64,000 nt of DNA from a virus (IMGVR_UViG_3300032116_000025); one strand, 5' to 3'. Shown: positions 900 to 60,153, counted from the first letter of the stretch. Program-made: numbers and translations. The notes: generated by a model from the sequence alone, not told the origin.

Positions 900-907
900 C
901 CTATAAG
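900..907 (+). promoter_or_regulatory. CCTATAAG putative phage promoter core
   Basis: Recurrent intergenic octamer, here upstream of SD AGGAGG and the ATG at 946. Confidence 0.7.
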
Positions 908-945
908 TAGTTGAAGCCGGAACTAATGTTCTGGCTAGGAGGGGT

Positions 946-1314
946 ATGACAAAAGAAGAAAAGGAAGAGATCAAGTCGCTCCAGCGGCTGGTCTCCTCTC
1001 GTGATGAAGAGATCCGCCAACTCCGCAAGGAGTTGGCGGAGGCGGTACGTCCGCCCAGCCAGCTTGTGCTGTTGCGACGGCTCTCCCGGCTTAGCCCGGG
1101 AGAGCAAGCACAAATCACTGTGAACCGCGATCAGTATAATGCGCGGTATCAAGTGGTGTTCCAAGAGAACGACGTGCGATATGAGGGAGAGGCCAACGCG
1201 CTTACCGAAGCGCTGTCATTGGTAGTGATGGTGCTCCGTCAAGAAAAACAAAAGGAGCTGGAGGAGACAGAGAGGCAGCTCCAGCTCCTCCGCGAGGAGC
1301 TGGAGCAGTACTGA
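946..1314 (+). CDS. hypothetical coiled-coil protein
   Basis: 122 aa, strong SD (AGGAGG), E/K/R/L-rich heptad-like ends. Confidence 0.8.
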   Translation: MTKEEKEEIKSLQRLVSSRDEEIRQLRKELAEAVRPPSQLVLLRRLSRLSPGEQAQITVNRDQYNARYQVVFQENDVRYEGEANALTEALSLVVMVLRQEKQKELEETERQLQLLREELEQY

Positions 1315-1320
1315 TCTCAA

Positions 1321-1365
1321 GCCTGCTCCCCGCCGCAAGGCGGGTCGAGCGGGCTTTCTCTTGCC
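1321..1365 (+). terminator. bulged hairpin terminator + TTTCTCTTGCC
   Basis: GCCTGCTC-CCCGCC-GCAA-GGCGGG-[TC]-GAGCGGGC followed by a pyrimidine tract. Confidence 0.75.
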
Positions 1366-1384
1366 TAACTTTGCCCGTAAAGTC

Positions 1385-1392
1385 CCTATAAG
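1385..1392 (+). promoter_or_regulatory. CCTATAAG putative phage promoter core
   Basis: Recurrent octamer upstream of the 1437 gene. Confidence 0.7.
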
Positions 1393-1436
1393 CGTTTGAA
1401 GCGCGGACCTATTGACGCCGCGATTCAGGAGATAAC

Positions 1437-1787
1437 GTGGCGGTAAACGCGTGCTATCGGTGTGGGTGCTCACACGAACAGTGTGAGTGCCATCTGCGAC
1501 GCTCCTCCGGAGAGATCCTCTCTCCGGAGCAAACCGTGGAGGAAGCGGGGAAAGTCCTCGCTATGCTTCGTCGCTCCCGCCCGCCCTACCGGGTCGGGCA
1601 ATGGGTCGTGCTCGGAGGTAGTGCCCCCGAGCACCTTCGCGGGGCGGAAGGCCGAGTCTCGGCCGTTCGCTCTGACGGCTCAATTCTGATCAGGCAGCTC
1701 AACGAGACTCCGGTAGAAGTTGAGTCTGCGTGGATCGCCCGCACGGGCACCACGTGGGACAAACTGGCGAAGGCCAAGGAGTCATGA
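1437..1787 (+). CDS. hypothetical protein (N-terminal Cys/His cluster, possible SH3/KOW-like C-terminal barrel)
   Basis: GTG start with SD AGGAG; CYRCGC..H..CEC; YRVGQWVVL...GAEGRV pattern. Confidence 0.7.
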   Translation: MAVNACYRCGCSHEQCECHLRRSSGEILSPEQTVEEAGKVLAMLRRSRPPYRVGQWVVLGGSAPEHLRGAEGRVSAVRSDGSILIRQLNETPVEVESAWIARTGTTWDKLAKAKES

Positions 1788-1790
1788 GTC

Positions 1791-1838
1791 AGTTACCCCA
1801 CTCCCCTACCAAGGGGTCGAGTGGGGTAACTTTTTGCC
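1791..1838 (+). terminator. bulged hairpin terminator + TTTTTGCC
   Basis: AGTTACCCCACTC-CCCT-ACCA-AGGG-[GTC]-GAGTGGGGTAACT followed by a T tract. Confidence 0.8.
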
Positions 1839-1845
1839 AAAAACA

Positions 1846-1853
1846 CCTATAAG
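1846..1853 (+). promoter_or_regulatory. CCTATAAG putative phage promoter core
   Basis: Recurrent octamer; CCTATAAGAAGATAG is identical to the copy at 11769. Confidence 0.7.
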
Positions 1854-1892
1854 AAGATAGATCGGAAACGGTTGTTTCCGCAGGAGGACCAC

Positions 1893-2339
1893 ATGATCAA
1901 GAACGGTGCTGAAGACTTGAACGAGCAGATCAAGAACCTGAGCGAGCAGATCGACAAGCAGAAGCGTACCGAAAAGGCGACCGAGAAGTTCTTCGAAAGG
2001 CCGGAGGAGCTTCCGGTCCTCATGCCGGTGAGGCCGCAGTCGATGACCGTGAACGCGGTCATCGAGTCGATTCTCGCCAAGGGCCCGTTGCCCGAGAGTT
2101 CGTTCCGGCAGGTGGTGCTCCTGCTGGCAGGAGCGAACAAGGCGGCGGATTTGGAGATCTCGATGGCGGTCATGGACCGCATCGAGCGAACGCTTCCGGC
2201 GTTCGCCATGCTCATGCAGAAGCGCCTCTCCCCCGAGGAGGCGGAGATCCATGAACTGGAACTCCGGCTGCGCAAAGCGCAGCTACAGGTGCAGCTTGAC
2301 GATCTGGAAATCGTCAAGCACGCCAAGATCAAGGCGTGA
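1893..2339 (+). CDS. hypothetical coiled-coil protein
   Basis: The ATG at 1893 follows SD AGGAGG, so it is preferred over the TTG at 1872. Confidence 0.8.
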   Translation: MIKNGAEDLNEQIKNLSEQIDKQKRTEKATEKFFERPEELPVLMPVRPQSMTVNAVIESILAKGPLPESSFRQVVLLLAGANKAADLEISMAVMDRIERTLPAFAMLMQKRLSPEEAEIHELELRLRKAQLQVQLDDLEIVKHAKIKA

Positions 2340-2343
2340 CACT

Positions 2344-2389
2344 AGGTTGATCCGCCGCCCGCAAGGGCCTGGCGGATCAACTTTTTGCC
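2344..2389 (+). terminator. bulged hairpin terminator + TTTTTGCC
   Basis: AGGTTGATCCGCC-GCCC-GCAA-GGGC-[CT]-GGCGGATCAACTT; lies between convergent genes. Confidence 0.8.
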
Positions 2390-2451
2390 AGTAAAAAGTA
2401 AAGGAGGGCGCCCAGATCAGCAGCACGTCCGGGCGCCCCCCTCTACCTAGC

Positions 2452-5400
2452 TTAGAATGCCCGACCAGCGCCTTGGTACGCGGGTGCAGCAAGGGGGCGG
2501 GAGGTCTGAGACTCTTCCTGCGCCATCTGCGTCTGGTTTAGCATATGGCCTGCTCCTACCGCCAGCCCGCCAAGGCCCAACGCGGCAGCTCCACCGGCAA
2601 TCGGGATGGCATTACGGCGCAGGAACCCAGGCTGTTTGGGTGCTTCCGGAGCGGCTGGCTGGCCCGCGGGTGCTACCGGTGTAGCCGCTCCGGTAGCTGC
2701 TACGGGCGTAGCGGCGGGAGATGCAGCGGCTGGGGCAGGAGGAGGAGGCGGCGCCACTCCCGCTGACTGCTGCGGTGGTGGCGGCGGGGGCGGAGGTGGG
2801 GGCGGCGCAGCACGCTGCGGAGGTGGTGGGGGTGGAGGCACTGGGCGCGCTGCCGCTGCGGGCGGTGGCGGTGGAGCAACAACGCGCCCCGTCTGGTTCT
2901 CAAGAGAGAAGCCAGGGGGCAGGGCAGGCCCGGGGGTTACGGGCAGCTGAGCCCGCGCGGGCGCGGAACTCGCGCCGGAGGCACGAACTAGCTCAGACAA
3001 CTCTGGAACGCGACCAGCCTCTTGCGTAACCGCTTTTGACTCTAGGTTAGCCAGCAGCGACTCAACCTGTGGGGACATTTGTCCCGGATCAGGCTTGGGT
3101 AGTGACGACGGCGCTGGTCGAGGTGCTACTTGGGTTGCCTCGTTCCCAATAGCCTCTCGACGCATGCGATCTTGGGAGGCTCGTAGAGCTTCTGCCCTTC
3201 GAGTTTCCTTTGCCGCCGCGTCAGCTTGACCCTTTGCTAGAACCTCTGCTTGCGAAGGTTCAGCGGGGCGCGCAGCAGGCGTGGCGGGGGGCTTAGCTGC
3301 GGGCTTAGCGGCAGGCGCAGCAGCGGGCGTAGCAGCGGGCGTAGTGGCTGGAGCAGTCGCAGGCGAAGTCTTTGGCGCAGGCGGTGCTTTTTCCCAGCCT
3401 AGCGCTTGGCGAGCCTTGCGGACCTCAGCGGCTTCTGCCGCTCCGCGCCCAGAGACTTCCTTCTTAACTTCGTCGACAAGCTTCTTGTCTTCCGCCCTGG
3501 CTGCGGCTCGCGCTGCCTCAGCCTTATCCAGCTTGGCTTTGTACTCCGGGCTGCCCGTTACGGGGTTTTGCTCACGCTGTTTTGACCTTTGGGCGGCCTC
3601 AGACTCCCGCTGTGTCTTACGCGCTGCCGCGGCCTGTTCTTCCCGCTCAATGGCAGCACGCTCACGCGCCTGACGCTCAGCGGCCCTGGTTCCCGGCTTT
3701 ACGTCTGAGCGCCCAGCAAACTGTTGGTCTAGCTGGTCCTTACGCTGCTGAATGCGCGCCTGATCCTTTGCTGTCGCAGCCTCAAGCTTGTTGCGGTCTG
3801 CTGCGTCGGCCATTTCCCGCTTAAGTGTATCCCGCGCGGTGTCCTGAGCCTTTAGGCGAGCTACCTCTTTAGAGGCTGCCTCCGGACCCCGGACCTTTGC
3901 TCCCGCAAGCCCTTCTCCGCTCCTAAGCGCCTGTACCTCGGCGCCTAGTTGCTTAGCTTTTCCTGAAACAAAGTTTCGACCCTGACGGCCAAAGTGAATA
4001 GCATCGTCGGCAAACTCCCGCCCTACGTCTTTCAGGGCTCCCAGCGCCTGCCGGGCAATACCTTTGGCGATCTTTTCCTGCTCCTCATTGGTCATGTACT
4101 CCCAGTCGGGGTACATGATCTGAGCAACCTTGACCGCCTGCCGCATGGCCAAGGCAGCGTTTGCCTTCTTTTCCTTTGACTTGTACTTCATGTAGTCGTG
4201 GACGGCGTCAATCGCCTCCGACGCACGGTCAATCTTGCTCTCAACCCAAGGCTCCGCGTTGTCCCGAACGGATACAGCACCAGAGAGCCGCTTAGACTGA
4301 TCCGCAAGCCGCTTGAGGTTGCTGACCATCATGTAGCCGGGCGGGTCATTGTGCTCGGAAAGCACGGACTTTCTGGAGGCTGTCTTTGGGGCTTCCGCCG
4401 GAACATAGTCTTCCGGCTTTTTACCGCCGGGAAGAAGCCGGTCGATCCCGCGAGATACGGGCTTGATAACGCCCGGAGCAACAAGGGCTAGTCCGCCGAT
4501 CTCCTGAAGATGGTAATCCTTCATCTTCTTGCCAGCGCCGTGGATTGCGGCTCCCATGGCCTTAATCCTTGGATCGCTGGCGTGCTCCATCTTTTCGCCA
4601 GCAAACTGAGCGATAGACGGGGCCGCTAAAGCAGCAATACCAACGTCGTCTAGCCGATCAGCAATAAACTCGGCGCGCTCGCTGTCCTTAGCCGCCTTGA
4701 TGTTATCGCCTTGGATCGAGGCTGCAAAATCGGTAACCGGCGGGATGTCGTCCCCGACGCCATTCCGCTCACCGTTACGCTTTGCAGGCTGAACCAGCGA
4801 GGCAATCTTCAAAGAACCAAAATCGATGTCTTGACCGCTGCTGATGCGCGCAAGGTTCAGCTCAATGAAGGCGTCGAGTTGTGTTCCACCGACTTTGGCG
4901 GCCTGCCCCGAGCCGTATGCCGAGTTCTGCTTAGTCATGTACATTCCGGCTCCAACGCCGGCAAGACCAACGGTTGGGGTTACCCACCACGGCAGCTTAA
5001 ACCCACCGCCCTCAGCTGCCGCAGCGGCTGGTGCGCCTGCGGGCGCGGCCGCTGCTGGAGCTGCGCCTGCGGCAGCGGCTGGGGGAGGCGGAGGTACCGC
5101 TGCGCCCGGAACCGGGGGAGGAGCAGCAGCCGGCACTCGGCTGCCTCCTTCGTACTTGACGTGGCCTCCGGACATAAGCCGGTCGCCTGCCCGGGTGGCT
5201 TTTACGTCTTGAGTGATGTTAGACAGCTGCTGTGGCGTCAGGCTTGTGCCCTGTAGGCCGGCCTTGAACGACGCTGCGCTGCGGGCAGATCCTGCGGCTA
5301 GTGCGTCACCAGCAGCATGGGCTACGTTCTTAGTGCCCTGAACTGCCCGGCCAGCAAGGTTAGCCGTGCCTTGAACAGCCTGCTGACCTGCGCGCACTAC

Positions 5401-6885
5401 CCGTCCGAACATGTTTGCTGCAACGTTGGCAGCCTTTTCCTGCTCTTCAGGCGACATCCGGTCCCAGTCTGGGAACACCGCACGCGCCAGCTTTACGGCG
5501 TCACCGGCGTAGCGTGGAGTAACCGGCGTGTACGCAAGGCTGGCCTTCTTGTCCCGGTTTGCCAGGTACAAGCCCGTTCCGCCTGCTGCGAGTAAGCCTC
5601 CTCCTACTACAAGCGGCGCATAACCGCCGGATCCGGTTGCCGGGGCAGCAGCTGGAGTTGCGGCCGGGGCAGCCGCTGGTACCGCCGCTGCACCTTCGTT
5701 TTGAACGGCTTGCCGAACGACGTTTTCCCGCTGCGTCCTGCTGGCCTCTGCCGCTGCGTTAAGATTCTGCTCAAACGCCTTTTCAGCTGCACGCGCCTGA
5801 TTCTTAGCCTCTGCATCGATAACTGCGGCAGCTTGGGGAAAGCGACCGCTAGGGTCTGTTGCTGAGGGTCGAAGCGGGGGTGTGTAGCCCGTAGTAGGCG
5901 CAGGTTGAACCGGTGTCGCGGCAGGAGACACGCCCCGGGTTGGCGCGGGGATTGGTGCATGCCCTTGTCCGGCTAGATCTCGCCCACGAGCACGGTAGCC
6001 CTGCTGAATCGCGTCGTCTAGGTCCTTGCCACCACGAAGCCCCCCAACCACGTGCTCTATCGGGGCGCCGCGGCGGGTGCTCTGCGACAGCTCTCCTACA
6101 GCTTTGCGAGCGCCGGATACCCCACCCACTACGCGGCTGTTTGCGGCTTCGCGTGCCTGCTGGGCAATTGCGTTTGCAATGTCTGGCGTAACTTCGTGGC
6201 CAGCGGTGGCTAGGCGCTTGGTTAGCCCAGCGGCAACCCGCTTCTCAATATCGGCCGCAGAAATGGCCAGCTTGGTTACTTCTGCTTTCTTTGATCGCAT
6301 TGTAGGCTTGCCCTTCTCGGCCGGAGCACGCTCAGGGAGGTTCTTCATGTTGGGAGTCTCGTCTGCCCATTCCTTCGCCTTCTCTTTTGAGAAGCCAGGA
6401 ATATGGCCGCCGAATGCGGCGCGCTGCTGACGCTTGGACGTGAAGGGCATCTTATTCTCCGAAATCTTTTGGCCGTGGTTCTTCTTATCGAGAACCTTAC
6501 CCTTAAACTCTTCAACGCCCATCTCCCTCATCGAGCCGAAGAAGCGGGGGTCATTATAGTGAGCTAGGTAAGCCGCCTTAGCCGCTTTGGCGTCCTTAAA
6601 TCCGAGCATCACCTTCTGCTCGTCAAACCGCCTGAAGTCTGGCTTCTTCATCTGATCGACGATGAACACGGAGCTGGAGTCGGTATCCGGGCCGACGTAG
6701 ACATCGACGTGGTCGCCGTCAGTGCCCTCTGTGCGGCGGAAGTAGCCGTAGTCGTACTTCATCACCGTGGTGCCAGATTCTCCGCTGTGGGGATCCTTCC
6801 AATGGCGCGACGACCCTCGCGGGTTTTCGATAGAAATATCGAACCCGTAGAGCTTTACCCTCTTTTTTATCGGATGTGCGGCCAT
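2452..6885 (-). CDS. large polyvalent/virion cargo protein with N-terminal inorganic-pyrophosphatase-like (InPase) domain, Pro/Ala-rich linkers and Gly-rich hydrophobic helices
   Basis: ISIENPRGSxR...YGY...GTDGDHVDVYVG...DQ...FDEQKVMLGF is the InPase signature of polyvalent proteins; internal repeats; many KxA sites. Confidence 0.8.
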   Translation of the reverse strand: MAAHPIKKRVKLYGFDISIENPRGSSRHWKDPHSGESGTTVMKYDYGYFRRTEGTDGDHVDVYVGPDTDSSSVFIVDQMKKPDFRRFDEQKVMLGFKDAKAAKAAYLAHYNDPRFFGSMREMGVEEFKGKVLDKKNHGQKISENKMPFTSKRQQRAAFGGHIPGFSKEKAKEWADETPNMKNLPERAPAEKGKPTMRSKKAEVTKLAISAADIEKRVAAGLTKRLATAGHEVTPDIANAIAQQAREAANSRVVGGVSGARKAVGELSQSTRRGAPIEHVVGGLRGGKDLDDAIQQGYRARGRDLAGQGHAPIPAPTRGVSPAATPVQPAPTTGYTPPLRPSATDPSGRFPQAAAVIDAEAKNQARAAEKAFEQNLNAAAEASRTQRENVVRQAVQNEGAAAVPAAAPAATPAAAPATGSGGYAPLVVGGGLLAAGGTGLYLANRDKKASLAYTPVTPRYAGDAVKLARAVFPDWDRMSPEEQEKAANVAANMFGRVVRAGQQAVQGTANLAGRAVQGTKNVAHAAGDALAAGSARSAASFKAGLQGTSLTPQQLSNITQDVKATRAGDRLMSGGHVKYEGGSRVPAAAPPPVPGAAVPPPPPAAAAGAAPAAAAPAGAPAAAAAEGGGFKLPWWVTPTVGLAGVGAGMYMTKQNSAYGSGQAAKVGGTQLDAFIELNLARISSGQDIDFGSLKIASLVQPAKRNGERNGVGDDIPPVTDFAASIQGDNIKAAKDSERAEFIADRLDDVGIAALAAPSIAQFAGEKMEHASDPRIKAMGAAIHGAGKKMKDYHLQEIGGLALVAPGVIKPVSRGIDRLLPGGKKPEDYVPAEAPKTASRKSVLSEHNDPPGYMMVSNLKRLADQSKRLSGAVSVRDNAEPWVESKIDRASEAIDAVHDYMKYKSKEKKANAALAMRQAVKVAQIMYPDWEYMTNEEQEKIAKGIARQALGALKDVGREFADDAIHFGRQGRNFVSGKAKQLGAEVQALRSGEGLAGAKVRGPEAASKEVARLKAQDTARDTLKREMADAADRNKLEAATAKDQARIQQRKDQLDQQFAGRSDVKPGTRAAERQARERAAIEREEQAAAARKTQRESEAAQRSKQREQNPVTGSPEYKAKLDKAEAARAAARAEDKKLVDEVKKEVSGRGAAEAAEVRKARQALGWEKAPPAPKTSPATAPATTPAATPAAAPAAKPAAKPPATPAARPAEPSQAEVLAKGQADAAAKETRRAEALRASQDRMRREAIGNEATQVAPRPAPSSLPKPDPGQMSPQVESLLANLESKAVTQEAGRVPELSELVRASGASSAPARAQLPVTPGPALPPGFSLENQTGRVVAPPPPPAAAARPVPPPPPPPQRAAPPPPPPPPPPPQQSAGVAPPPPPAPAAASPAATPVAATGAATPVAPAGQPAAPEAPKQPGFLRRNAIPIAGGAAALGLGGLAVGAGHMLNQTQMAQEESQTSRPLAAPAYQGAGRAF

Positions 6886-6952
6886 GCCAATGCGGTGCCC
6901 AGCATAACACAGGCTTACGCCAAGCTAAAAGCCCAAGAAACCCGCTATTCCC

Positions 6953-6960
6953 CCTATAAG
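6953..6960 (+). promoter_or_regulatory. CCTATAAG putative phage promoter core
   Basis: Octamer 6 nt upstream of the ATG at 6967. Confidence 0.7.
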
Positions 6961-6966
6961 CTATTG

Positions 6967-7629
6967 ATGAGCACCAATGTCTCGCTCAACAGCGGTAACC
7001 CCGCCGGCGCGGAGCCGAACTCCGCGATTGCCTGCATTGCGGGCATTTTCGTGCAGGTCTACGGTATTGCCGCCTCGAAGTTCGAGACGGCGTGTGTCGG
7101 AACGCGGGTAGCGTTCCCGATGCAACAATTCGTCCAGGAGTTTGTCGCCCAGGCGGTGAACTCCTGGAAGGGCCCCGATCGGGCGCCCGGGCAGCACTTC
7201 ATCCAGCTGAAGCTGAACGAGTACATGCTGGGGAAGTTCCTTAGCGGGGTCGGGCGCCGGACGACAGACCCAAAGGAATACTTCCCCGCTCTGTGGAGGG
7301 GAGAAGTGGTTCTGCTCGGCCGGCGAAAGCTGGCCGAACCCACCACTGGAGTGGCAGTGATCGTGTACACCCGCGAGGCGTACCTCAACGATCCACAGAT
7401 CGACGAGGCGGGAAGGCGGTGGCTGGACCCGAGGACGACCCACGTCCTTGTGGACGTCCTCGCATTCTCGAACACGATCGGCTCCCCGCAGCTTAGCCCG
7501 CACCGCTTCGTGCGGAACATGGCTGGCGGCAACAATACCCAGCTCACGGCAAGCGCCGACGAGCTTCGAGCAGAGGCTCAACTCGTGGCCGCGTACGATG
7601 CGAGCTACGTCACGGTCGGCGACGACTGA
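6967..7629 (+). CDS. hypothetical protein
   Basis: Start moved from 6709, which overlaps the minus gene, to the ATG at 6967 just after the promoter motif; ends at a terminator. Confidence 0.75.
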   Translation: MSTNVSLNSGNPAGAEPNSAIACIAGIFVQVYGIAASKFETACVGTRVAFPMQQFVQEFVAQAVNSWKGPDRAPGQHFIQLKLNEYMLGKFLSGVGRRTTDPKEYFPALWRGEVVLLGRRKLAEPTTGVAVIVYTREAYLNDPQIDEAGRRWLDPRTTHVLVDVLAFSNTIGSPQLSPHRFVRNMAGGNNTQLTASADELRAEAQLVAAYDASYVTVGDD

Positions 7630-7635
7630 CCACAC

Positions 7636-7681
7636 CGCCCGCTCCCCGGCTTCGGCCGGGTTGAGCGGGCGTTCTCTTGCC
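7636..7681 (+). terminator. bulged hairpin terminator + TTCTCTTGCC
   Basis: CGCCCGCTC-CCCGGC-TTCG-GCCGGG-[TT]-GAGCGGGCG. Confidence 0.8.
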
Positions 7682-7700
7682 TAGTAATACCGCGTTTTCC

Positions 7701-7708
7701 CCTATAAG
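7701..7708 (+). promoter_or_regulatory. CCTATAAG putative phage promoter core
   Basis: Upstream of SD GGAGG and the ATG at 7724. Confidence 0.7.
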
Positions 7709-7723
7709 CATGTGGAGGAAACT

Positions 7724-7864
7724 ATGCGACGAAACCGACGATTGGCTGACCTGGCGCGTGAGCGTCAGGCAGCGGAAGTTCGTGAGGAGGTCAAGCAAAT
7801 CGCGCTTGGCCTCCTCGCGCTCGTAGGGCTGCTGGCCACATCGTGGCTAGCGGCGTTTATCTGA
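7724..7864 (+). CDS. small membrane protein (46 aa, not in ORF track)
   Basis: MRRNRRLADLARERQAAEVREEVKQIALGLLALVGLLATSWLAAFI; has its own promoter motif, SD and terminator. Confidence 0.75.
   Translation: MRRNRRLADLARERQAAEVREEVKQIALGLLALVGLLATSWLAAFI
7741..7771 (+). repeat. 31-bp exact direct repeat, copy 1 (copy 2 at 8868-8898)
   Basis: ATTGGCTGACCTGGCGCGTGAGCGTCAGGCA occurs twice. Confidence 0.9.
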
Positions 7865-7902
7865 AAGATGGGGAGCCTAACAGGCTCCCCATCTTTTTTG
7901 CT
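7864..7902 (+). terminator. perfect hairpin terminator + TTTTGCT
   Basis: AAAGATGGGGAGCCT-AAC-AGGCTCCCCATCTTT. Confidence 0.85.
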
Positions 7903-7938
7903 TTGCTATCTGTATCCAGACCTAGGTAAACCAAACGT

Positions 7939-8133
7939 ATGAGTCGTTCAGAACGCGAGCGGTCCCTTCTTCGTCGGCTACTTGCTATTGCTGTTCACCG
8001 GCTTGGTGGGGAAATGCGGGTCACCAAAGAAGAGGTCTTTACCGGCACTTGGGAGCTGGGGATGGACCACGCAACTCTCCCAACAGTGGTTACCGGATTT
8101 CGTGTAGCTTCTAAAGATCGTGATACTCTGTAG
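7939..8133 (+). CDS. hypothetical protein
   Basis: 64-aa ORF, no clear SD. Confidence 0.55.
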   Translation: MSRSERERSLLRRLLAIAVHRLGGEMRVTKEEVFTGTWELGMDHATLPTVVTGFRVASKDRDTL

Positions 8134-8230
8134 ATAGGCCGGTGAGCAGTTTCTGCTGCTTCCTGCTCTTTACCGACCCCGAAGCAGAGCAGCGTCAGGG
8201 GAAAGACGGCCACCCTTTAGGAGCGCACCT

Positions 8231-8419
8231 GTGAACGTCACACGCACCGTCTGGTACATCAGCTCAGACGAAACGGGAAAGCTGGGCCCGTTTTCTACTC
8301 AAGAGCAAGCCTACAGCGCGATCCGCAAAGATCTTTACGCAAGCACAGATCTAGCAAAGCGCCCATCTAACGTAGTCTTGTGGCCCGAGTACGTATCGAG
8401 CGCAGACCCAAAGGGATGA
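8231..8419 (+). CDS. hypothetical protein
   Basis: 62 aa, GTG start after SD AGGAG. Confidence 0.65.
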   Translation: MNVTRTVWYISSDETGKLGPFSTQEQAYSAIRKDLYASTDLAKRPSNVVLWPEYVSSADPKG

Positions 8420-8436
8420 AATAGCGCTCCTTTTTG

Positions 8437-8444
8437 CCTATCAG
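8437..8444 (+). promoter_or_regulatory. CCTATCAG variant promoter core
   Basis: One-base variant of the recurrent octamer, upstream of the 8465 gene. Confidence 0.6.
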
Positions 8445-8464
8445 TAGGTAGAAAGGAACGCAAA

Positions 8465-8764
8465 ATGTGCATCCTAAACGATAGCGAGAAGGCCGCGGTA
8501 TCCGCCGCGGTCACCACCATCCTGGAGAAGGGTCTGCCCTTCACGGGTCAGTCGGTCACGCACGAGTTGCGTGACCGGGGCGTCAACCTCCCTCACAGGG
8601 AGATTTCCTCGTACACGCGGGAGATCTTCAACGGCGGAAAGATGCCTGGGTGGGCTTCCACCCAGGTCGTCCCGGGCCTTGGCCCGGTGATGTACTTCCC
8701 GGTCCCGCCGCGTAGCGCGGCGGGGATGGCGGCGGCGAAGCTTCGAAAGAAGCTGGTCCCGTGA
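8465..8764 (+). CDS. hypothetical protein
   Basis: 99 aa, SD AAGGA, GTGA overlap with the next gene. Confidence 0.75.
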   Translation: MCILNDSEKAAVSAAVTTILEKGLPFTGQSVTHELRDRGVNLPHREISSYTREIFNGGKMPGWASTQVVPGLGPVMYFPVPPRSAAGMAAAKLRKKLVP

Positions 8765-9498
8765 AGGACGGTAAGCGGCGGAGGGCGAAAGCCCTCCGCC
8801 TGCCGGACGTCCCTGCTTTCCAGCAGGCGGCGTCCATCCCGGTTAAGGGCCAAAAGCCCCTAACCCAATTGGCTGACCTGGCGCGTGAGCGTCAGGCAAA
8901 GGGGCAGGAGGACATGCGTGAGGTGCGCAGGCACCTTGAGCGCTCCTGCAAAGAGTCGGGACGGCAGAACACCTACGGCGGGGTGTTCTACAGCTACACA
9001 GTGTTGAAGCCGAAAGAGCTTCGGCACAAGGACAACACGCGGACCCTGTGGCACGGTACCGCCCTCGGCAATCTCACGAACATCCTAATACACGGATTTA
9101 GGCCTTCGTACGGAGGGCTTATGGGTCCGGGCGTCTACTTCGGTGGACGCCAGAAAGCCGAGGCATACTCAAGGGCCCCCCTCGGAGCGCTGCTCCGATG
9201 CGAGGTGGCCCTGGGCCGAACAGCGGATGCCGTTCCCTCGTGGGAGGACGCGCGCCCGCCGTACGACACCCTACACGGCGTGCCCGGCCAGACGCGCACG
9301 TATGGATCGTCCACCCTTCTTAACGAAGAATGGGCGGTCCTTGACCCTGCCCGAATCTCCATTCACGAAATTCGGGTGTTCACTGCAAATCGAGGCGAGT
9401 GTGTCCGATGCGGACGCCTTGTCAGCGATGAGCACCTTCAGTCGAGGTGGTCACCGCGCCACAAAGACTTCATCAGGCTTTGTGGCCACTGTCTGTGA
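8761..9498 (+). CDS. PARP-like (H-Y-E clade) ADP-ribosyltransferase with C-terminal CxxC..CxxC finger
   Basis: LWHGT, GLMGPGVYF, KAEAYS, LLRCEVALG, NEEWAV motifs; CVRC...CGHC at the C-terminus. Confidence 0.8.
   Translation: MKDGKRRRAKALRLPDVPAFQQAASIPVKGQKPLTQLADLARERQAKGQEDMREVRRHLERSCKESGRQNTYGGVFYSYTVLKPKELRHKDNTRTLWHGTALGNLTNILIHGFRPSYGGLMGPGVYFGGRQKAEAYSRAPLGALLRCEVALGRTADAVPSWEDARPPYDTLHGVPGQTRTYGSSTLLNEEWAVLDPARISIHEIRVFTANRGECVRCGRLVSDEHLQSRWSPRHKDFIRLCGHCL
8868..8898 (+). repeat. 31-bp exact direct repeat, copy 2
   Basis: Identical to 7741-7771; encodes LADLARERQA in both genes. Confidence 0.9.
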
Positions 9499-9503
9499 GT
9501 AAT

Positions 9504-9544
9504 GCGGCCTCCCCATAACGGGTTGAGGCCGCTTTACTTTTGCT
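9504..9544 (+). terminator. bulged hairpin terminator + TTTTGCT
   Basis: GCGGCCTC-CCC-ATAAC-GGG-[TT]-GAGGCCGC. Confidence 0.75.
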
Positions 9545-9565
9545 CCCAAAATATGCGCCGTTTCT

Positions 9566-9573
9566 CGTATAAG
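9566..9573 (+). promoter_or_regulatory. CGTATAAG variant promoter core ahead of the tRNA array
   Basis: Variant of the octamer, ending 21 nt before tRNA-Thr. Confidence 0.55.
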
Positions 9574-9594
9574 ATATTGCGGCTCAACTTACCT

Positions 9595-9666
9595 GCCCCC
9601 TTAGCTCAGCGGTAGAGCAACGGTTTTGTAAACCGTAGGTCGTCGGTTCAATCCCGACAGGGGGCT
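9595..9666 (+). tRNA. tRNA-Thr(TGT)
   Basis: Cloverleaf with acceptor GCCCCCT/AGGGGGC, anticodon arm ACGGT-TT-TGT-AA-ACCGT and TTCAA T-loop; no encoded CCA. Confidence 0.95.
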
Positions 9667-9669
9667 CAC

Positions 9670-9750
9670 GCGGGAATGGCGGAATGGCAGACGCACCAGA
9701 CTTAGGATCTGGCGCCGAAAGGTGTGGGGGTTCAAATCCCCCTTCCCGCA
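9670..9750 (+). tRNA. tRNA-Leu(TAG)
   Basis: Anticodon arm CCAGA-CT-TAG-GA-TCTGG; long variable arm. Confidence 0.95.
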
Positions 9751-9754
9751 CAAA

Positions 9755-9828
9755 CGGGGTGTAGCACAGCCTGGTAGTGCGCCAGCTTTGGGAGCTGGAA
9801 GTCGCAGGTTCAAATCCTGTCGCCCCGA
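9755..9828 (+). tRNA. tRNA-Pro(TGG)
   Basis: Anticodon arm CCAGC-TT-TGG-GA-GCTGG; acceptor CGGGGTG/CGCCCCG. Confidence 0.95.
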
Positions 9829-9842
9829 CTAAGGAGGTACGA

Positions 9843-10343: not shown

Positions 10344-10363
10344 ACCGCCACACAAGGAACAGA

Positions 10364-10915: not shown

Positions 10916-10921
10916 TGGTCG

Positions 10922-11006
10922 GGAGGAGTGGCCGAGTGGTCTAAGGCAGCGGTTTTGAAAACCGCCGTGGGGCAACCCACCAGGGGTTCGAATCCCTTCT
11001 CCTCCG
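10922..11006 (+). tRNA. tRNA-Ser(TGA)
   Basis: Anticodon arm GCGGT-TT-TGA-AA-ACCGC; long variable arm GTGGG-GCAA-CCCAC. Confidence 0.95.
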
Positions 11007-11768: not shown

Positions 11769-11776
11769 CCTATAAG
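11769..11776 (+). promoter_or_regulatory. CCTATAAG putative phage promoter core
   Basis: Upstream of SD AGGAGG and the ATG at 11792. Confidence 0.7.
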
Positions 11777-12045: not shown

Positions 12046-12053
12046 CCTATAAG
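12046..12053 (+). promoter_or_regulatory. CCTATAAG putative phage promoter core
   Basis: Upstream of SD AAGGAGG and the GTG at 12072. Confidence 0.7.
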
Positions 12054-33657: not shown

Positions 33658-36055
<2,398 letters not shown>

Positions 36056-36072: not shown

Positions 36073-36080
36073 CCTATAAG
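36073..36080 (+). promoter_or_regulatory. CCTATAAG putative phage promoter core
   Basis: Upstream of the 36127 gene. Confidence 0.7.
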
Positions 36081-49538: not shown

Positions 49539-49578
49539 CGGAGAAGTCTACCCCTTCGTGAAGAACCGGGTCAACGCG

Positions 49579-49586
49579 GCTATCAG
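49579..49586 (+). promoter_or_regulatory. GCTATCAG variant promoter core
   Basis: Divergent intergenic region, upstream of SD GAGGT and the ATG at 49602. Confidence 0.6.
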
Positions 49587-51365: not shown

Positions 51366-52609
51366 TTAATGAAGCGTCGTTTACGAGTAAGGAGGCTCTC
51401 CGGCTTGTAAACGACGCTGTTTTTGATTTGATTCTACGGGCGGAGCTGATGGGGCTGTCCCTCATGGGAGAGGCCATCAAGATTCTACAAGACGACTCGA
51501 TCAAAACAATGTGTACCGATGGGAGAACCATCCGAGTTTCGTCTGAGTGGCTGTCCAAGAACGGACTACGCGGCAACGTTTTTGACCTACTGCATGAGTG
51601 GCTTCACTGCTTCGGCAACCACGTCGCGCGGCGTGGGAGCAGAGATCCCAGCCTGTGGAACATTGCCTGCGACATCTGGGTAGTAAAGACAGCCTCAGAA
51701 ATACTAAGCCGCCCAAATGACGCTTGGGACCCTCCTAAAGATGGGGTTCAGCCTCCCAAGTGGGCCGAGGGGCTCTCCGTAGAGGAGATCTACGACAAGC
51801 TAAAGTCTGAGCAGGACCAGCGAAAGTCATCGGGCCTTACGTCACCTGGACCGCTTAGGTCAGCTTCTCAAAGTTCGTCTAGTGATCCTAGTAGCGAAAT
51901 CCAGTCCGGTAAGGACTTCGACTACAAGAGCGCGGAAGAAGCCACGGAGCAAGAAGAGCAAGACTTCGTAGATCAGTTTACAAACGAGCTTGCCCAAGCT
52001 CAGCTGATTATGGAGATGTCCAGTGGCCAAAGCGTAGAGGATCGCTACGGGTCAAAGGTGTCATCTCGTATTACAGAGGTGTTAAGGGGCACCGTTCCTT
52101 GGTCACGGCTGCTTCGTGGGGACTTGATCGATAAGCTGGAGAAGCAGCACGCTACCTGGAGCCCTCCGCGCCGGAAATATTACCCGCTGATTCCGCTGCC
52201 TTCGTACCAAAGCACAAAGACTCGCAAGCTGGTCTTGTCGATCGACGTGTCGGCGTCCGTTGGCGAGAAGATGATGAAGGCGTTTATTTCAAACACCATG
52301 CCGGCGGCGCTGCGGGCTGATGAAACCATCGTCATTACTTTCGATCAGGTAATCCGCGAGGTGGTTCACACGCGAAGACCCAAAGACATCTTGAATCAAG
52401 TCAAGTTCTTACAGGGGGCGCATAGCTACACGGATGTCCGCCCCGTGTTTGACATGATCAGAGAAATCAACCCGTCTGCCGTAGCGATTCTTACTGACGC
52501 GTATCTATCCTACCCAGACGATCCGTACCGAGATGCCATCTTTGTGGTTCCACGGGGGGCAGGAACTCCCCCATGGGGAAAGGTGTACGTAATGGAGGAG
52601 TCTTGGTGA
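51362..52609 (+). CDS. DUF2201-like metallopeptidase + VWA domain protein
   Basis: TMCTDG, LLHEWLH, WNIACD, VPW..LL, IDVSASV (MIDAS-like), ILTDAY. Confidence 0.85.
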   Translation: MINEASFTSKEALRLVNDAVFDLILRAELMGLSLMGEAIKILQDDSIKTMCTDGRTIRVSSEWLSKNGLRGNVFDLLHEWLHCFGNHVARRGSRDPSLWNIACDIWVVKTASEILSRPNDAWDPPKDGVQPPKWAEGLSVEEIYDKLKSEQDQRKSSGLTSPGPLRSASQSSSSDPSSEIQSGKDFDYKSAEEATEQEEQDFVDQFTNELAQAQLIMEMSSGQSVEDRYGSKVSSRITEVLRGTVPWSRLLRGDLIDKLEKQHATWSPPRRKYYPLIPLPSYQSTKTRKLVLSIDVSASVGEKMMKAFISNTMPAALRADETIVITFDQVIREVVHTRRPKDILNQVKFLQGAHSYTDVRPVFDMIREINPSAVAILTDAYLSYPDDPYRDAIFVVPRGAGTPPWGKVYVMEESW

Positions 52610-53970
52610 CGGACGCGCTTCTACGAGACAGCTGCTTGGCGTTGCTAGCTCAACCCGGCGGCACCGCCCAGTTTCAGAAGATCGGACTCCTAGCGTGCGG
52701 TAGCGAGTGGGCGCACGTTATCTCGTCTGTTTCAGCTACGAAGACCTGCGAAGTAGAGTCTTACGCAGTTTCAGTAGCCCACGGCGTAAAGCCAAGCGAA
52801 CTGTACGGGCGCTTAAAGCCACGGCCCCTGGTCAACGTGCTTGAAACGAACCGCTATTACAGGGCGGCTTACCGAAGCGCATTTATCTCGCACCCACTTC
52901 ATCTGAGCCTTGCGTTTAGTGAACTACTAAACGACAGGGAAGAGGGAGACTGGCTTCTACAGGAGTACCAAGAGGCTGGCGACGCTGACAAGTACCGGGG
53001 TAGCGACTTTCTCTCAGTAAGCTGGATTCCTCCCTACACGCCCGAAAGTACCGGCAGAACCCCGTTCGCAAAGCCAAAGTGCATAGACAACATCTCGTTC
53101 ATCGCATGGTTTGATAAAAACTCGGTGAGCGAACTCGTTTCTAACGTAGACTCCTCGTTTATCGCAGAAGCGGCCAACGTTAGCGTTCACCTAAGTAGGC
53201 CGCTTGACCTGTCGATACCAGCATGGGCTGCGCTAAGCTCCCATTGGGGTCACGCAAGACCCGATTACAACTGGGTAACCGACCTCCTACGCCTTGTGCG
53301 CCCTCACAAGGCTCACGCCTTGCTGGATAACGCCGTCGGTGTTCGGCGCTCGTTTGGCATTACCCGCGACGATGCAACGCCGCGCCAGATGACACATGGC
53401 ATGCGGTCAATAGCGGGAATGACAGAAGAGGCTAGGGAGGCCATGTCTAGGCTTTACGGAAGGGCTCCGACCATTAGCGAGATCAAGGCTGTGCGGGGCG
53501 GCGGTATCGTAGATCTCCTCTACTACATGCCGTGGGTACTCCTAGAAAACGTACTCAAGGAGCACTCGTCCGACCTTCGCGCGCTTACCCTGCCCCACCT
53601 ACAGCACCTAACTGGCAGCAAGCGCTACCTGCTACAAGACCACGATCGTAGGGCAAAACTACGCGCCTACGCAGGGAGAGAAGCAGGAGATCGTATAACC
53701 GTAACGCCGAACACCACAACCAGCGATTGGTCAAAGGTGTTTACCGGGCTGGTAAACCAGTACCAAGCGTCCCGCTCCCTACGAAACAGGCTGCTTGAGG
53801 CGTGCCAAGACCCTGTGGTAGCCGCAGTCGCGTTGATGGCTAAGTTTGAGATACTAGACAAGAATCTTGTAGAGCGTGTTCTGCGCCACCACAGGAACTT
53901 TCGTCGGATCTCAGAAGTAGCAAACCAAGCTACCGAGGTCATTACAGATCCGGATAATCTAGTTACGTAA
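52606..53970 (+). CDS. hypothetical protein
   Basis: GTG at 52606 follows SD GGAG and overlaps the previous stop. Confidence 0.75.
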   Translation: MTDALLRDSCLALLAQPGGTAQFQKIGLLACGSEWAHVISSVSATKTCEVESYAVSVAHGVKPSELYGRLKPRPLVNVLETNRYYRAAYRSAFISHPLHLSLAFSELLNDREEGDWLLQEYQEAGDADKYRGSDFLSVSWIPPYTPESTGRTPFAKPKCIDNISFIAWFDKNSVSELVSNVDSSFIAEAANVSVHLSRPLDLSIPAWAALSSHWGHARPDYNWVTDLLRLVRPHKAHALLDNAVGVRRSFGITRDDATPRQMTHGMRSIAGMTEEAREAMSRLYGRAPTISEIKAVRGGGIVDLLYYMPWVLLENVLKEHSSDLRALTLPHLQHLTGSKRYLLQDHDRRAKLRAYAGREAGDRITVTPNTTTSDWSKVFTGLVNQYQASRSLRNRLLEACQDPVVAAVALMAKFEILDKNLVERVLRHHRNFRRISEVANQATEVITDPDNLVT

Positions 53971-56923: not shown

Positions 56924-57873
56924 CGCCTTGCGCCGACCATTCTCAGCTGCTGCACCATTTGTGAGCGAACCCGCCGGGCGTAGTCCCAGTGAACCAGCAA
57001 GCGATATACCGCATTTCCGGGCCCGTTGTCAGGAAGACCGTCTACTGCGCGCACGATTGGCATGGCCTTGCGGGCTTTCCAAAGAGATTCAGAGGTTTTC
57101 TTTGCCTCCTCAAACTCTCCCGGCAGTTTCTCTAGCTTCCTATGGCCGCACGATACACAGCGCACATCGTTGTCGTCGCGGTTAATCGTGTTGCAGCGCT
57201 CGCACTGGATCTTCGGGTCGTCTAGTTCCCGCTGAGCAAAATGAAGCGGATCCGGTGCGTAATGGATCCCGTCCTCTTTTAAAACGGCTGCTACGTACTT
57301 GTCTACCTCTGTCCCGGTGGACCTCTTTGGGTCCGTCAGCCGCATCAGATCGGCCATCACGAAAAGGTGCCCGATCTCAGGAGACTCTAGGTAGACGATG
57401 TTTGGCTGCTGGCCCGATAGTCCGCGGGCTACCCAGTGAAACACCTCCCACCGGCGCCAAGGCGCCGGGGAAGCAAGCAGCACAAACACAGAGAGGATCT
57501 TTGCGTAAGCGCTGTTAGACAGCTGAATGCCGTCCTTCTCTAGCGTCTGCTGAACCGTCACGGGCATCCAGCCCGTGACGTCCTCACCGTACCGGTCAAT
57601 CAGCATCAAGGCGAGCACCATGGGGTGCGCGTCTGGGTGCTTCCAGATGTTATCCGGTGTAATTGTAGGTGACGTAACGTCATCTACAGCAGCTGTCTTG
57701 CTGCCGAGAATGCCCCACTCTTGCGCGCAGCTTACCGCGCTATCAACCAAACTCTCGGTTGATACGGTGGGGCACTCATACGGCTCTTCAGTAGGGGCGT
57801 CGTTGAACGCCGTAGCGGAGCCGCCCGCTGGAGGCCAGCTCCGCCAGTGCGAGGAGTCTAACTCCATGGTCAA
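56920..57873 (-). CDS. hypothetical virion-module protein with CxxC..CxxC ribbon
   Basis: 317 aa; CERC...CVSC; SKTAA motif. Confidence 0.75.
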   Translation of the reverse strand: MTMELDSSHWRSWPPAGGSATAFNDAPTEEPYECPTVSTESLVDSAVSCAQEWGILGSKTAAVDDVTSPTITPDNIWKHPDAHPMVLALMLIDRYGEDVTGWMPVTVQQTLEKDGIQLSNSAYAKILSVFVLLASPAPWRRWEVFHWVARGLSGQQPNIVYLESPEIGHLFVMADLMRLTDPKRSTGTEVDKYVAAVLKEDGIHYAPDPLHFAQRELDDPKIQCERCNTINRDDNDVRCVSCGHRKLEKLPGEFEEAKKTSESLWKARKAMPIVRAVDGLPDNGPGNAVYRLLVHWDYARRVRSQMVQQLRMVGARR

Positions 57874-58565
57874 CCCGCCGGGTCGACCTCATACGAGAGT
57901 GCGTAGTCATGCGTCCCATCTGGCGCCGCCGCTGGCGTGTAAAGGCGGCCGTCAAGGGTAGCCGTTGGCGGGTCAATCAGGGCGCCGTCCATCACCTCGC
58001 GGAAGATCGCAGCAAGGCCCGCGCGGGTCTTGACGGCTCCAAACAAACCCAGCGCCGCCCCGTACCCGATCTTAAACGTGCCGGTCGTAAGCAGGTTGGC
58101 CGGGATCTGGACCTCCTCAATCGTCTGGAGGCCACGGCGCTCCGTCGACGTAAGGACGTCGTTACCGTCGTCGTTGGGCTGCACAAAGTTAAGCGTCACC
58201 CGCTCGCCGTAGCAAGTCCCAATGACCTTAATGGTACCCGTGCTAAACGCGTTCGCCGTGTTTGAGCGGGTAATGACGATCTCACGGGCAAGGCTGCCGG
58301 GGGTCGAGGAGGCTAGAAAGCTTCCAGCCGACGCGCGCAAGGTTACCGCCGACGTTGAGCCGTTGAAGGGGGCCTTGAAATAGGCGTCATCCGCGACGGC
58401 AGGGTTTGTAAACTCGTCTGTACGGATAAACCCGCCGGACTCAAGGAGCCCAAACGCCGCATCGACGTCAAGGCGCAGATCGTAGATCTCCGCGGCCTGA
58501 CCACCGGGGCCGACAATCAGGTGGGGCTTACGCGGGTTTGACGCACCAAAATGACGAGAGGACAT
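57870..58565 (-). CDS. virion structural protein (beta-rich; decoration-like)
   Basis: 231 aa, SD AAGGAG, G/T/A-rich. Confidence 0.75.
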   Translation of the reverse strand: MSSRHFGASNPRKPHLIVGPGGQAAEIYDLRLDVDAAFGLLESGGFIRTDEFTNPAVADDAYFKAPFNGSTSAVTLRASAGSFLASSTPGSLAREIVITRSNTANAFSTGTIKVIGTCYGERVTLNFVQPNDDGNDVLTSTERRGLQTIEEVQIPANLLTTGTFKIGYGAALGLFGAVKTRAGLAAIFREVMDGALIDPPTATLDGRLYTPAAAPDGTHDYALSYEVDPAG

Positions 58566-58593
58566 AGTAGATCTCCTTCAGTTCGTTAGACAA

Positions 58594-60105
58594 TCAGATG
58601 CGGAAGGTCTGGGACGAGTTATCCGACGCGAGGCGCGATAGTACCACCTTTTGCGGATCGGGCATGGACTTGAAGATTCCCACGGGGTCGGTCTGGAACG
58701 ACTGGCTGAACCCCGACCCAAACGTAGTGTCTAGGTCTGCTCGACGGGAGGCCAGAGCTTTCAGCATCGCGCCGCTGACGTAGTCGCCACCGCTTCGCCA
58801 GGAGTACACGTCCTCTTCCGCGGGCTGAGCCTCGCTGAGCTTAGGCTGGCCGTAAACTGCCTCATAAGGGTCGCGGAACCCGACCCCGGGACGACCGTAT
58901 ACAAGGTCTGCACCCGATTCGTGATCTGCTTCACGAAGCATGTCTGCCATGATGTTAGGGCTGATCGAGCTGACTTTTTCAAGGAGCAACTCGTAAACCT
59001 CTTCGTGTCCGCTACCCGCGTAACTAGAGACCCGAGCGTGCAACTCCGGGTGAATAAACGGGCCGTACTCGACACCCCCGTAAGCAAGAGCAGACCCGGA
59101 GATCTTAACCCCAAGCTCGTCCGCGCGGCCCAAAACCGACTGCGAGAACACCCGCCGGTCTAGTGGGGAGAACGAGTAAAGGTGCTCGTCTAAGTACGCC
59201 GACGCGGTTTTAAGCTGGTTGACGGTGTCGATTGGGTAGAGACCCTTGTGGGGCATCGCAAAGTGCTGGTGCGATGCCTCCTTGTGGCGAACCGGGGAAG
59301 ACTCGTGGGTAAGGTCTACCGAGACACCCAGCGAGGATGTCTTAGAGGTCACGCCGGCAGAGCGGAGGGGACTTGCCTTTGCGTGCCCCCGGCGCTGCTG
59401 GTGGCTCATGGCCTCGGTGTTGTTTAGGTCCGCGACCTTCTTCGCTTGCTCCGCAAACTCTCCATGCTGTACTTGCCGGTCAAGCTTGCGGTGCGTCGGC
59501 CCATGCTGGGAGAACTGGTCTAGCGGGCCAAAAATGTAACCCGACTCTGGGCCCTCGGCACGCTGCATGGCGGCGTCCTGGTCCATTGTAAGCTGGATCT
59601 CCCGCCCCGACGCTACCTTTGCGCCCGCCATCTGATTGGCGCGGAAGACTTCCATACGCTCACGGCCCTTGGCGTTTTCTTCGCGGGCTGAGTTCGCAGC
59701 GTCCCCAATACCCTGACCAATGGTAAGCGCGTTCATCGCCATGTTAAGGAGCGCTTCCTTCTTCAAGAAGCTTGGCGGGTCCTGGTCGTACCAGCCGCAC
59801 CCCTCTACTAAGTTTGAGGCTACCTTTGCCCGTACATGATCCGGAAGAAGGTGTCCGCACTCTGCAAAGTAGAGGATGGAAGTAGCGAGGTGCCCCTCGT
59901 CATGCATAGCAAACTTGCGGAGTGTGTCCCCGTGATTGCTTGCTACTAGTGCAAACAACCGGTCCGGTAGACGCTCCAGCTCCTCGTGGTCTAGCAGACG
60001 AGAGGAGGCAAGCTTCTGGGGCAGCGAGCGCCCAGCCATCTTGTTTCGGAGAACGACTCCCTTTGGGTCGTCGTAAATGTCTAGGATCACGCCTGCGAGG
60101 TTCAT
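58594..60105 (-). CDS. head-associated KxA-rich protein with two LPD..FA / FA.P....YPID modules
   Basis: LERLPDRLFA...RKFAMHD and HFAMPHKGLYPID resemble DUF6582-like phage head modules. Confidence 0.75.
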   Translation of the reverse strand: MNLAGVILDIYDDPKGVVLRNKMAGRSLPQKLASSRLLDHEELERLPDRLFALVASNHGDTLRKFAMHDEGHLATSILYFAECGHLLPDHVRAKVASNLVEGCGWYDQDPPSFLKKEALLNMAMNALTIGQGIGDAANSAREENAKGRERMEVFRANQMAGAKVASGREIQLTMDQDAAMQRAEGPESGYIFGPLDQFSQHGPTHRKLDRQVQHGEFAEQAKKVADLNNTEAMSHQQRRGHAKASPLRSAGVTSKTSSLGVSVDLTHESSPVRHKEASHQHFAMPHKGLYPIDTVNQLKTASAYLDEHLYSFSPLDRRVFSQSVLGRADELGVKISGSALAYGGVEYGPFIHPELHARVSSYAGSGHEEVYELLLEKVSSISPNIMADMLREADHESGADLVYGRPGVGFRDPYEAVYGQPKLSEAQPAEEDVYSWRSGGDYVSGAMLKALASRRADLDTTFGSGFSQSFQTDPVGIFKSMPDPQKVVLSRLASDNSSQTFRI

Positions 60106-60145
60106 GCCTACAAAGATACTTCGTTAAACGTATGGGGGTCAACGG

Positions 60146-60153
60146 CCTATCAG
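60146..60153 (+). promoter_or_regulatory. CCTATCAG variant promoter core
   Basis: Divergent intergenic region, upstream of SD AAGGAGG and the ATG at 60172. Confidence 0.65.

Follow-up and report, generated by a model that had tools for sequence, protein, structure and literature searches.

The 64-kb window, which is the whole 64,000-nucleotide stretch of viral DNA analysed here (IMGVR_UViG_3300032116_000025), contained a short octamer, [C/G]CTAT[A/C]AG (SCTATMAG), ahead of genes and a tRNA array of the plus strand. The gene map was obtained with a codon-likelihood caller, a tRNA scan and Rfam, and 94% of the window was coding. The virion module was on the minus strand, with the large terminase, the major head protein, the sheath, a baseplate-like protein and a virion protein of 1477 aa, and this block also contained a 2067-aa fused beta-beta' RNA polymerase. 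The genes downstream of the octamer were, by Pfam, those named in a preliminary description of the window: a PARP-like ADP-ribosyltransferase, GyrB, an AAA protein with the VWA-like DUF2201, an SF2 helicase and UDG. The positions of the octamer sites, of two contrasting promoters and of the polymerase gene are listed in Table 1.

Table 1. Octamer sites, TTGACC-type promoters and the polymerase gene in the window.
Feature	Coordinates	Strand	Context
CCTATAAG, -10-type element	900..907	+	heads 122-aa gene 946-1314
CCTATAAG	1385..1392	+	directly 3' of hairpin and T-run terminator; heads small gene 1437/1536-1787
CCTATAAG	1846..1853	+	after terminator; heads 148-aa gene 1893-2339
CCTATAAG	6953..6960	+	divergent gap; ATG of gene 6967-7629 is motif position 14, without Shine-Dalgarno
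CCTATAAG	7701..7708	+	after terminator; heads 46-aa gene 7724-7864
CCTATCAG	8437..8444	+	heads 99-aa gene and PARP-like ADP-ribosyltransferase 8761-9498
CGTATAAG variant	9566..9573	+	after terminator; 21 nt before first tRNA (9595) of array
CCTATAAG	11769..11776	+	after terminator; heads 64-aa gene 11792-11986
CCTATAAG	12046..12053	+	after terminator; heads 60-aa gene 12072-12254
GCTATCAG	34090..34097	+	in 3' end of ORF 33658-34158; gyrB (34118-36055) next; orthologous site of relatives also TATCAG
CCTATAAG	36073..36080	+	after gyrB; heads 210-aa gene 36127-36759; orthologous site TATAAG in G003 and G001
GCTATCAG	49579..49586	+	heads 42-aa gene and AAA / VWA-like operon; back to back with polymerase promoter
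CCTATCAG	60146..60153	+	heads helicase/UDG operon (60172 onward); orthologous site TATCAG in four relatives
Fused beta-beta' RNA polymerase, 2067 aa	43335..49538	-	inside virion gene block
TTGACC (49574-49569), 18-nt spacer, TAGACT (49550-45)	49539..49574	-	6 nt to GTG (49538) of fused polymerase
TTGACC, 18-nt spacer, TATCTT	60106..60142	-	7 nt to ATG (60105) of 503-aa gene

All 13 octamer sites of the preliminary description were present at the coordinates claimed, and every one was on the plus strand. Exact matches to SCTATMAG numbered 12, all on the plus strand, against an expectation of 4.8 ± 1.9 for both strands, and this count was reached by 0 of 100 dinucleotide-preserving shuffles. The thirteenth site, at 9566, was confirmed as the CGTATAAG variant. 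Each plus-strand TATAAG hexamer of the window (9/9) was part of the octamer motif. Eleven of the 12 exact octamers were intergenic by the codon-likelihood gene map, with non-coding DNA making up 6% of the window, and the remaining one, at 34090, overlapped the final codons of an ORF and was located 20 nt before gyrB. The distance from the motif end to the start codon or tRNA array was 6–46 nt, as had been described, and every site was co-oriented with the next gene or tRNA array.

The octamer had also been said to head nearly every non-structural transcription unit. It headed most of them, being found in about 13 of the 19 plus-strand gaps of at least 40 nt, and six gaps had no exact copy (7865–7938, 8134–8230, 11008–11208, 11372–11433, 33588–33657 and 49731–49818). 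An Rfam match to CyVA-1 RNA (RF02965) was located at 8136–8212 (+) in one of these motif-free gaps, scoring 47.7 bits versus a gathering score of 41.4. The gaps 11008–11208 and 11372–11433 (+), which belonged to the tRNA array, contained no called gene, tRNA or Rfam match.

The same motif was found in related phages with a fused polymerase. These relatives were 15 uncultured phage contigs, whose polymerases were 54–65% identical to that of the window, and their 15 polymerase loci contained 27 copies on the strand opposite the polymerase and 0 on the polymerase strand. The five complete relatives (172–196 kb) had 19–28 motif copies each, compared with 2–9 for the reversed word. The restriction to the plus strand, as described for the window, held within it, whereas the complete relatives used both strands, in blocks that tracked gene direction. 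Four complete relatives were gene-called, and the genomes pooled with the window were 91–96% coding (non-coding 4–9%), although the codon-likelihood calls were poor in the 66% G+C genome G001. Of the 103 copies in the window plus the four relatives, 80 were intergenic and co-oriented with the next gene, compared with 0 of 23 control words. Motif discovery, which had been suggested as a check, gave the same result; an unbiased k-mer scan of oriented upstream gaps ranked CCTATAA, CTATAAG, CCTATCA and CTATCAG first, and these top four 7-mers were all derived from the octamer and occurred at 20–30 times the expectation. No near-identical phage was found in GenBank, and a literature search with four octamer sequences returned only unrelated papers.

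Bacterial sigma-70 promoters are composed of a -35 element, a 17-bp spacer, a -10 element (TATAAT) and a start 6–7 nt further on. The octamer was compared with this arrangement using a consensus pooled from 86 sites. The preliminary description saw no fixed-distance -35, which was incorrect, since 12 of the 13 window sites had an A 18 nt upstream of the octamer (P = 6e-8); the same A was present in 52 of the 86 pooled sites. An A at -17 occurred in 9/13 window sites and was also conserved among the pooled sites. The fixed upstream element at the -35 location was composed of one or two A's and was weak, with a 17-bp spacer. Closer to the octamer, the pooled sites were A/T-rich at -6 to -4 and had a C at -2. 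The A at the second hexamer position, which is -11-like, was found in 86/86 pooled and 13/13 window sites; this invariance is partly a consequence of site selection, whereas the k-mer enrichment is unbiased. The hexamer ended in G rather than in the T of sigma-70 promoters, as had been noted, and did so throughout the ~86 pooled sites. In upstream gaps, CTATAAG had 32 copies versus 3, 0 and 0 for the words ending in A, C and T, respectively.

On the 3' side of the octamer, four free bases were followed by T, G, purine, A, G and G in the pooled sites, and the window sites had T at +12 in 11/13 and a purine at +13 in 13/13. Of 85 sites, 55 had a Shine-Dalgarno sequence at a constant position, and 49 had the start codon 12–23 nt after the octamer. 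The T-purine step was kept at sites with no ribosome site following (900, 1385, 6953, 9566 and 36073) and was therefore read as the likely -1/+1 step. With this start, the hexamer would span about -12 to -7 or -11 to -6, with the invariant A at about -11/-10 and the invariant G at about -7/-6. Transcripts would begin at the Shine-Dalgarno sequence or 1–2 nt before it, mostly with very short leaders. At 6953, the predicted start falls on the ATG, which would give a leaderless mRNA if the start is position 13/14. Judged by these sequence features, the octamer [C/G]C-TAT[A/C]AG is the predicted extended -10 element of a bipartite promoter class that is specific to these phages and has sigma-70-like geometry.

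The sites were located after terminators, in divergent gaps and before the tRNA array, and the octamer is therefore not a translation signal. A motif that is short, oriented and placed between genes might also be an RNA processing site or the binding site of a regulator, with no promoter involved. This explanation is extremely improbable, because many copies are right after intrinsic terminators or head divergent units, where no upstream transcript is expected, and because an A upstream and a T-purine step downstream, both at fixed positions, make the site asymmetric. It can be stated with high confidence that the octamer is a genuine promoter element throughout the clade.

The terminator hairpins (1321–1384, 1791–1845, 7636–7700, 9504–9565, 11709–11768 and 11996–12045) shared a bulged GGGTYGAG 3' arm and a TTTCTTTTGCC tail. 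Cassettes of terminator, promoter and ribosome site were repeated around small genes, and the same style was present in the relative G005 at ~101–112 kb. TTGCC words were considered as -35 elements and rejected; they were 8–22 nt from the hexamer and formed the tails of terminators (TTTCTTTTGCC). A simple sigma-70 promoter scan of window positions 1–13000 gave no promoter.

The polymerase gene had no octamer. Its promoter was of a host-like sigma-70 type with a -10 element ending in T, and therefore the G-ending octamer constitutes a separate class in the same genomes. The pattern TTGAC-N17-20-TAnnnT had only two matches in the whole window, both intergenic and both on the minus strand. In the relatives, the polymerase promoter was composed of TTGACC(C), 17–18 nt, TAGACT, 6 nt and GTG, and the GTG start was conserved too. 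From these distances, the mRNAs of the polymerase and of the 503-aa gene are probably leaderless. Genes starting 6–11 nt after a bare TAGACT, with no obvious -35, were also observed (G003 33662–33883, G005 52017–52970 and G004 156557–160105), which suggests a wider leaderless class. At the head of the virion block (33588–33700, minus strand), no clear conserved promoter was found, and GCTAYCCTA and TGGAAA-N17-TAGACT were the only candidates. In six relatives (L001, L004, L005, L007, L008 and L015; ~9948–10000), the word GGGTCAAC was located 17 nt before the TATCAG hexamer, and on the other strand it was the TTGACCC -35 of the polymerase promoter. This palindromic word could serve two back-to-back promoters. 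The window differed from those relatives in that the two elements were adjacent.

Among distant phages, exact SCTATMAG was not enriched in Salmonella phage Arash (9 versus 27 for the reversed control), Vibrio phage D181 (33 versus 25) or Rhizobium phage RHph_TM30 (12 versus 36). By an unbiased k-mer scan of Arash and D181, which are cultured relatives, the hexamer core alone was common to the window clade and these two phages. Arash contained 31 copies of GGTATAAG, all intergenic and 30 of them on one strand, and the sole opposite-strand copy headed the gp9-gp10 (sigma) pair. D181 contained 26 copies of G[TG]TATAAG, with 20 intergenic and 24 on one strand. Both phages had an A in a CAAYA-like word 20 nt upstream of the hexamer, which is the location of the upstream A in the window sites, and a T-G step followed the hexamer by 4–5 nt. 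The final G was again preferred in Arash, where GGTATAAG had 31 copies and the words ending in T, A and C had 2, 4 and 4 copies, respectively. The same G-ending hexamer was thus used in different hosts and at ~29% polymerase identity, and a phage-encoded reader is therefore favoured.

A host holoenzyme, with a housekeeping or alternative sigma, might still read the motif, which would then represent the ordinary early promoters of an unusual host. The -10-like look and the invariant A at the -11-like position agree with this, as does the C just upstream of the hexamer, which recalls RpoS-type promoters. However, the final G is invariant in ~86 sites, while the TTGAC-type promoters of the same genomes end in T. 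In addition, phages that infect Salmonella, Vibrio and the host of the 58–66% G+C phages share the TATAAG core, and the intergenic copies in Arash are 47 for TATAAG versus 4 for TATAAT. Reading by the host holoenzyme is accordingly very unlikely.

In Arash and D181, the structural strand carried most copies of a second enriched upstream word, (C)TAAAATA, and this word was often arranged back to back with TATAAG promoters. The portal-polymerase unit of Arash was preceded by a CTAAAATC variant of it. Arash also had four copies of a ~60-nt element with a palindromic TTATATAAG core (26740, 66487, 100243 and 138590), which inflates the raw Arash TATAAG counts and is outside the promoter class.

A conserved protein of ~270 aa was encoded by all four analysed relatives. 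A profile of four orthologues, searched against solved structures, matched only sigma factors (RpoD, SigB, FliA and others) until the last of the matches listed, with a best E of 1.8e-5 and an alignment spanning region 2 to 4.2. The sigma assignment is based on this profile search. Profile searches found sigma homologues in the relative G002 and in Arash and D181, where the polymerase identity was about 29%, and no sigma homologue in RHph_TM30. The Arash homologue was gp10, annotated as a sigma factor (E 3e-26). By mass spectrometry of Arash virions, beta had the most spectra of any protein (3516), beta' had 1210, and gp10 had 100% coverage (PMC10585845). Each of the complete genomes with sigma (8/8) also carried the polymerase, and the four sigma-bearing contigs with no polymerase match were 20–61% complete and so uninformative. 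The motif also preceded the sigma gene, or an ORF-sigma pair, in G001, G003, G004, G005 and Arash.

A complex of sigma with polymerase residues 1020–1470 of the same genome was modelled, with own alignments for both proteins. The model scored 0.80, compared with 0.16 for the highest-scoring of three controls. In the calibration of the tool, 58 of 80 solved complexes and 2 of 110 mismatched pairs attained this mark, and these counts apply only roughly here since own alignments were used. Three runs shared at least 55% of contacts, and the partner pLDDT was at least 71. In the modelled interface, the polymerase clamp helices (residues 1188–1237) interacted with sigma residues 51–94, and the predicted contact is the canonical one between sigma region 2 and the beta' coiled coil. 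The clamp-helix word LNxLYRRL was invariant in all eight polymerases compared, including that of the window.

The preliminary description took the octamer as the recognition site of the phage RNA polymerase. This was upheld in that the promoter was specific to the lineage, travelled with the phage polymerase from 65% to ~29% identity and was not a host sigma-70 -10. The part that was revised is the reading subunit. Because the geometry is bipartite and sigma-dependent, the clade encodes a sigma headed by the motif, and gp10 is present in virions, sigma is a likelier recognition subunit than the polymerase core. The divergent ~270-aa sigma-70-family protein would read the octamer as a holoenzyme with the phage fused beta-beta' polymerase. 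Recognition of the octamer by the phage sigma is probable, whereas the action of this sigma with the phage core is favoured by a narrow margin over its absence. As a whole, a bipartite class read by the phage sigma on the phage core is the moderately favoured explanation.

The fused polymerase might instead recognise the octamer alone or with a non-sigma helper, like the non-virion polymerases of phiKZ and AR9. Short private promoters have been described for phage multisubunit polymerases (PMC7598289), and the motif travels with the polymerase. This arrangement is nevertheless improbable for a bacterial-type core whose sigma-docking clamp helices are conserved, for a bipartite promoter with canonical 17-bp spacing and -10-to-start geometry, and for a clade with a sigma-70-family gene in every complete relative.

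The phage sigma might also read the motif on the host core, with the phage polymerase serving another class, such as the virion genes. T4 gp55 and SPO1 gp28 are phage sigmas that work with the host core, and redirecting the host core is, to our knowledge, the only textbook mode of phage sigma factors. The existence of the sigma family and its association with the octamer fit this arrangement too, and the second promoter class of the virion and polymerase genes needs its own reader. It is considered unlikely, though less so than recognition by the polymerase alone, because sigma and the phage polymerase co-occur in 8/8 complete genomes, both proteins are abundant in Arash virions, sigma was modelled on phage clamp helices with clade-invariant contact residues, and the second class resembles an ordinary host sigma-70 promoter.

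Several observations weigh against a phage holoenzyme of sigma and fused polymerase. Direct Pfam matches to sigma regions 2, 3 and 4 in the relatives were all sub-threshold, and no sigma gene was present within the 64-kb window. Virion packaging was shown only for Arash, whose polymerase is ~30% identical and not fused. Sigma/beta' complexes have already been solved, so the pass of the complex model may reflect a remembered likeness, and the model does not discriminate between phage and host cores. If transcription starts at position 13/14, many mRNA 5' ends would fall on the Shine-Dalgarno sequence, which is unusual. Finally, if sigma is made from its own promoter class, something must start the loop.

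Since sigma and polymerase are abundant in Arash virions, the octamer class may be early or middle and be fired by an injected holoenzyme, with the polymerase and virion genes on another class. A stronger form of this proposal is tentative and has somewhat the smaller chance of being correct. In that form, the virion would carry and inject the single-chain beta-beta' core with the sigma-70 factor, and the complex would fire the TATAAG class without needing the host polymerase. Sigma would have its -7 pocket re-tuned from T to G, insulating phage promoters from host promoters. If true, this would be the first known sigma-70-type holoenzyme serving as a virion polymerase.

The promoter class resembled bacterial sigma-70 promoters in its bipartite form, the invariant -11-like A, the 17-bp spacing, the pyrimidine-purine start step and the presence of a sigma-70-family protein in the clade. 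It differed in the invariant final G, in place of the T of the housekeeping type, and in two fixed bases upstream of the hexamer (CC/GC; GG in Arash and GT in D181). Furthermore, the -35 was reduced to one or two A's, and the sigma was very divergent. T4 late promoters, TATAAATA, are read by gp55, which has region 2 only, with gp33 and the gp45 clamp on the host core. Their likeness to the octamer class is a phage-private A/T-rich extended -10 word that dominates the promoter and has a phage sigma-family reader, whereas here sigma regions 2 to 4, a weak -35 and a phage-encoded core were found.

In phiKZ and AR9, a virion-packaged polymerase fires the early genes from a ~10-nt A/T-rich word centred near -10; these enzymes are assembled from split beta/beta' fragments and use a non-sigma specificity subunit, and the late motifs are TATG at the start site and AACA-N6-TW, which is read on the uracil template strand (PMC7598289). 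A phage multisubunit polymerase is common to these phages and the present clade, and the Arash proteome suggests the same virion-enzyme logic. In contrast, the enzyme here is one fused bacterial-type chain with a sigma-70-type partner, the motif is upstream of the likely start, and the late motifs share nothing with the octamer. Arash shared a homologous polymerase (~30% identity), the homologous sigma gp10 and a TATAAG core that heads the non-structural strand. It differed in its separate beta and beta', in the octamer GGTATAAG with no TATCAG subclass, and in a second class of CTAAAATA rather than TTGACC-TAGACT. The word "promoter" had 0 occurrences in either the Arash paper (PMC10585845) or the paper of Weinheimer & Aylward 2020 on the lineage of polymerase-encoding tailed phages (PMC7481178).

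Phage bacterial-type polymerases have been catalogued, and the motif, the candidate sigma and the predicted docking site together make the question of how they find their genes testable. If the phage sigma reads a G-ending -10, this would be a natural case of re-specified -7 recognition and would provide an orthogonal set of promoter, sigma and core. It would also allow early and late classes to be annotated in many uncultured 170–200 kb phages.

The TATCAG and TATAAG forms of the octamer had been assigned to longer enzyme operons and to mostly single small genes, respectively, and both assignments agreed with the gene map. The units headed by the four TATCAG sites of the window had 1–6 genes; one was gyrB alone, another the ADP-ribosyltransferase pair, and the other two were enzyme operons of five and six genes. 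The TATAAG sites preceded single genes in 7 of 9 cases, and those at 7701 and 9566 (the tRNA-array site) each headed three called genes. In five pooled genomes, the median sizes were 1.5 genes and 216 aa for TATAAG units, compared with 4 genes and 792 aa for TATCAG units. The difference gave Mann-Whitney P values of 0.003 (genes) and 0.0003 (aa), for sites that are phylogenetically non-independent. The form was retained in orthologous gaps, with TATAAG after gyrB and TATCAG both ahead of gyrB and the helicase operon and across from the polymerase gene; at least 10 relatives had TATCAG at the orthologue of the 49579 site. The two forms differ at the fourth hexamer base, a position that is weakly specified in sigma-70 promoters, and a difference in strength or melting between the A and C forms is plausible. 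In Arash and D181, the k-mer scan gave no enriched TATCAG-type word.

On the virion strand, the only motif-like site was GATATAAG, with one mismatch, at 24640–24647 (-). It was located after the terminator of the major head protein gene and before gene 24010–24621, and was not kept in G004 or G005. The 1477-aa virion-type protein (2452–6885, minus strand) had an N-terminal inorganic-pyrophosphatase-like domain (PF18823, E 6.5e-39), and its gene was preceded by an extended -10-like TGTTATGCT.

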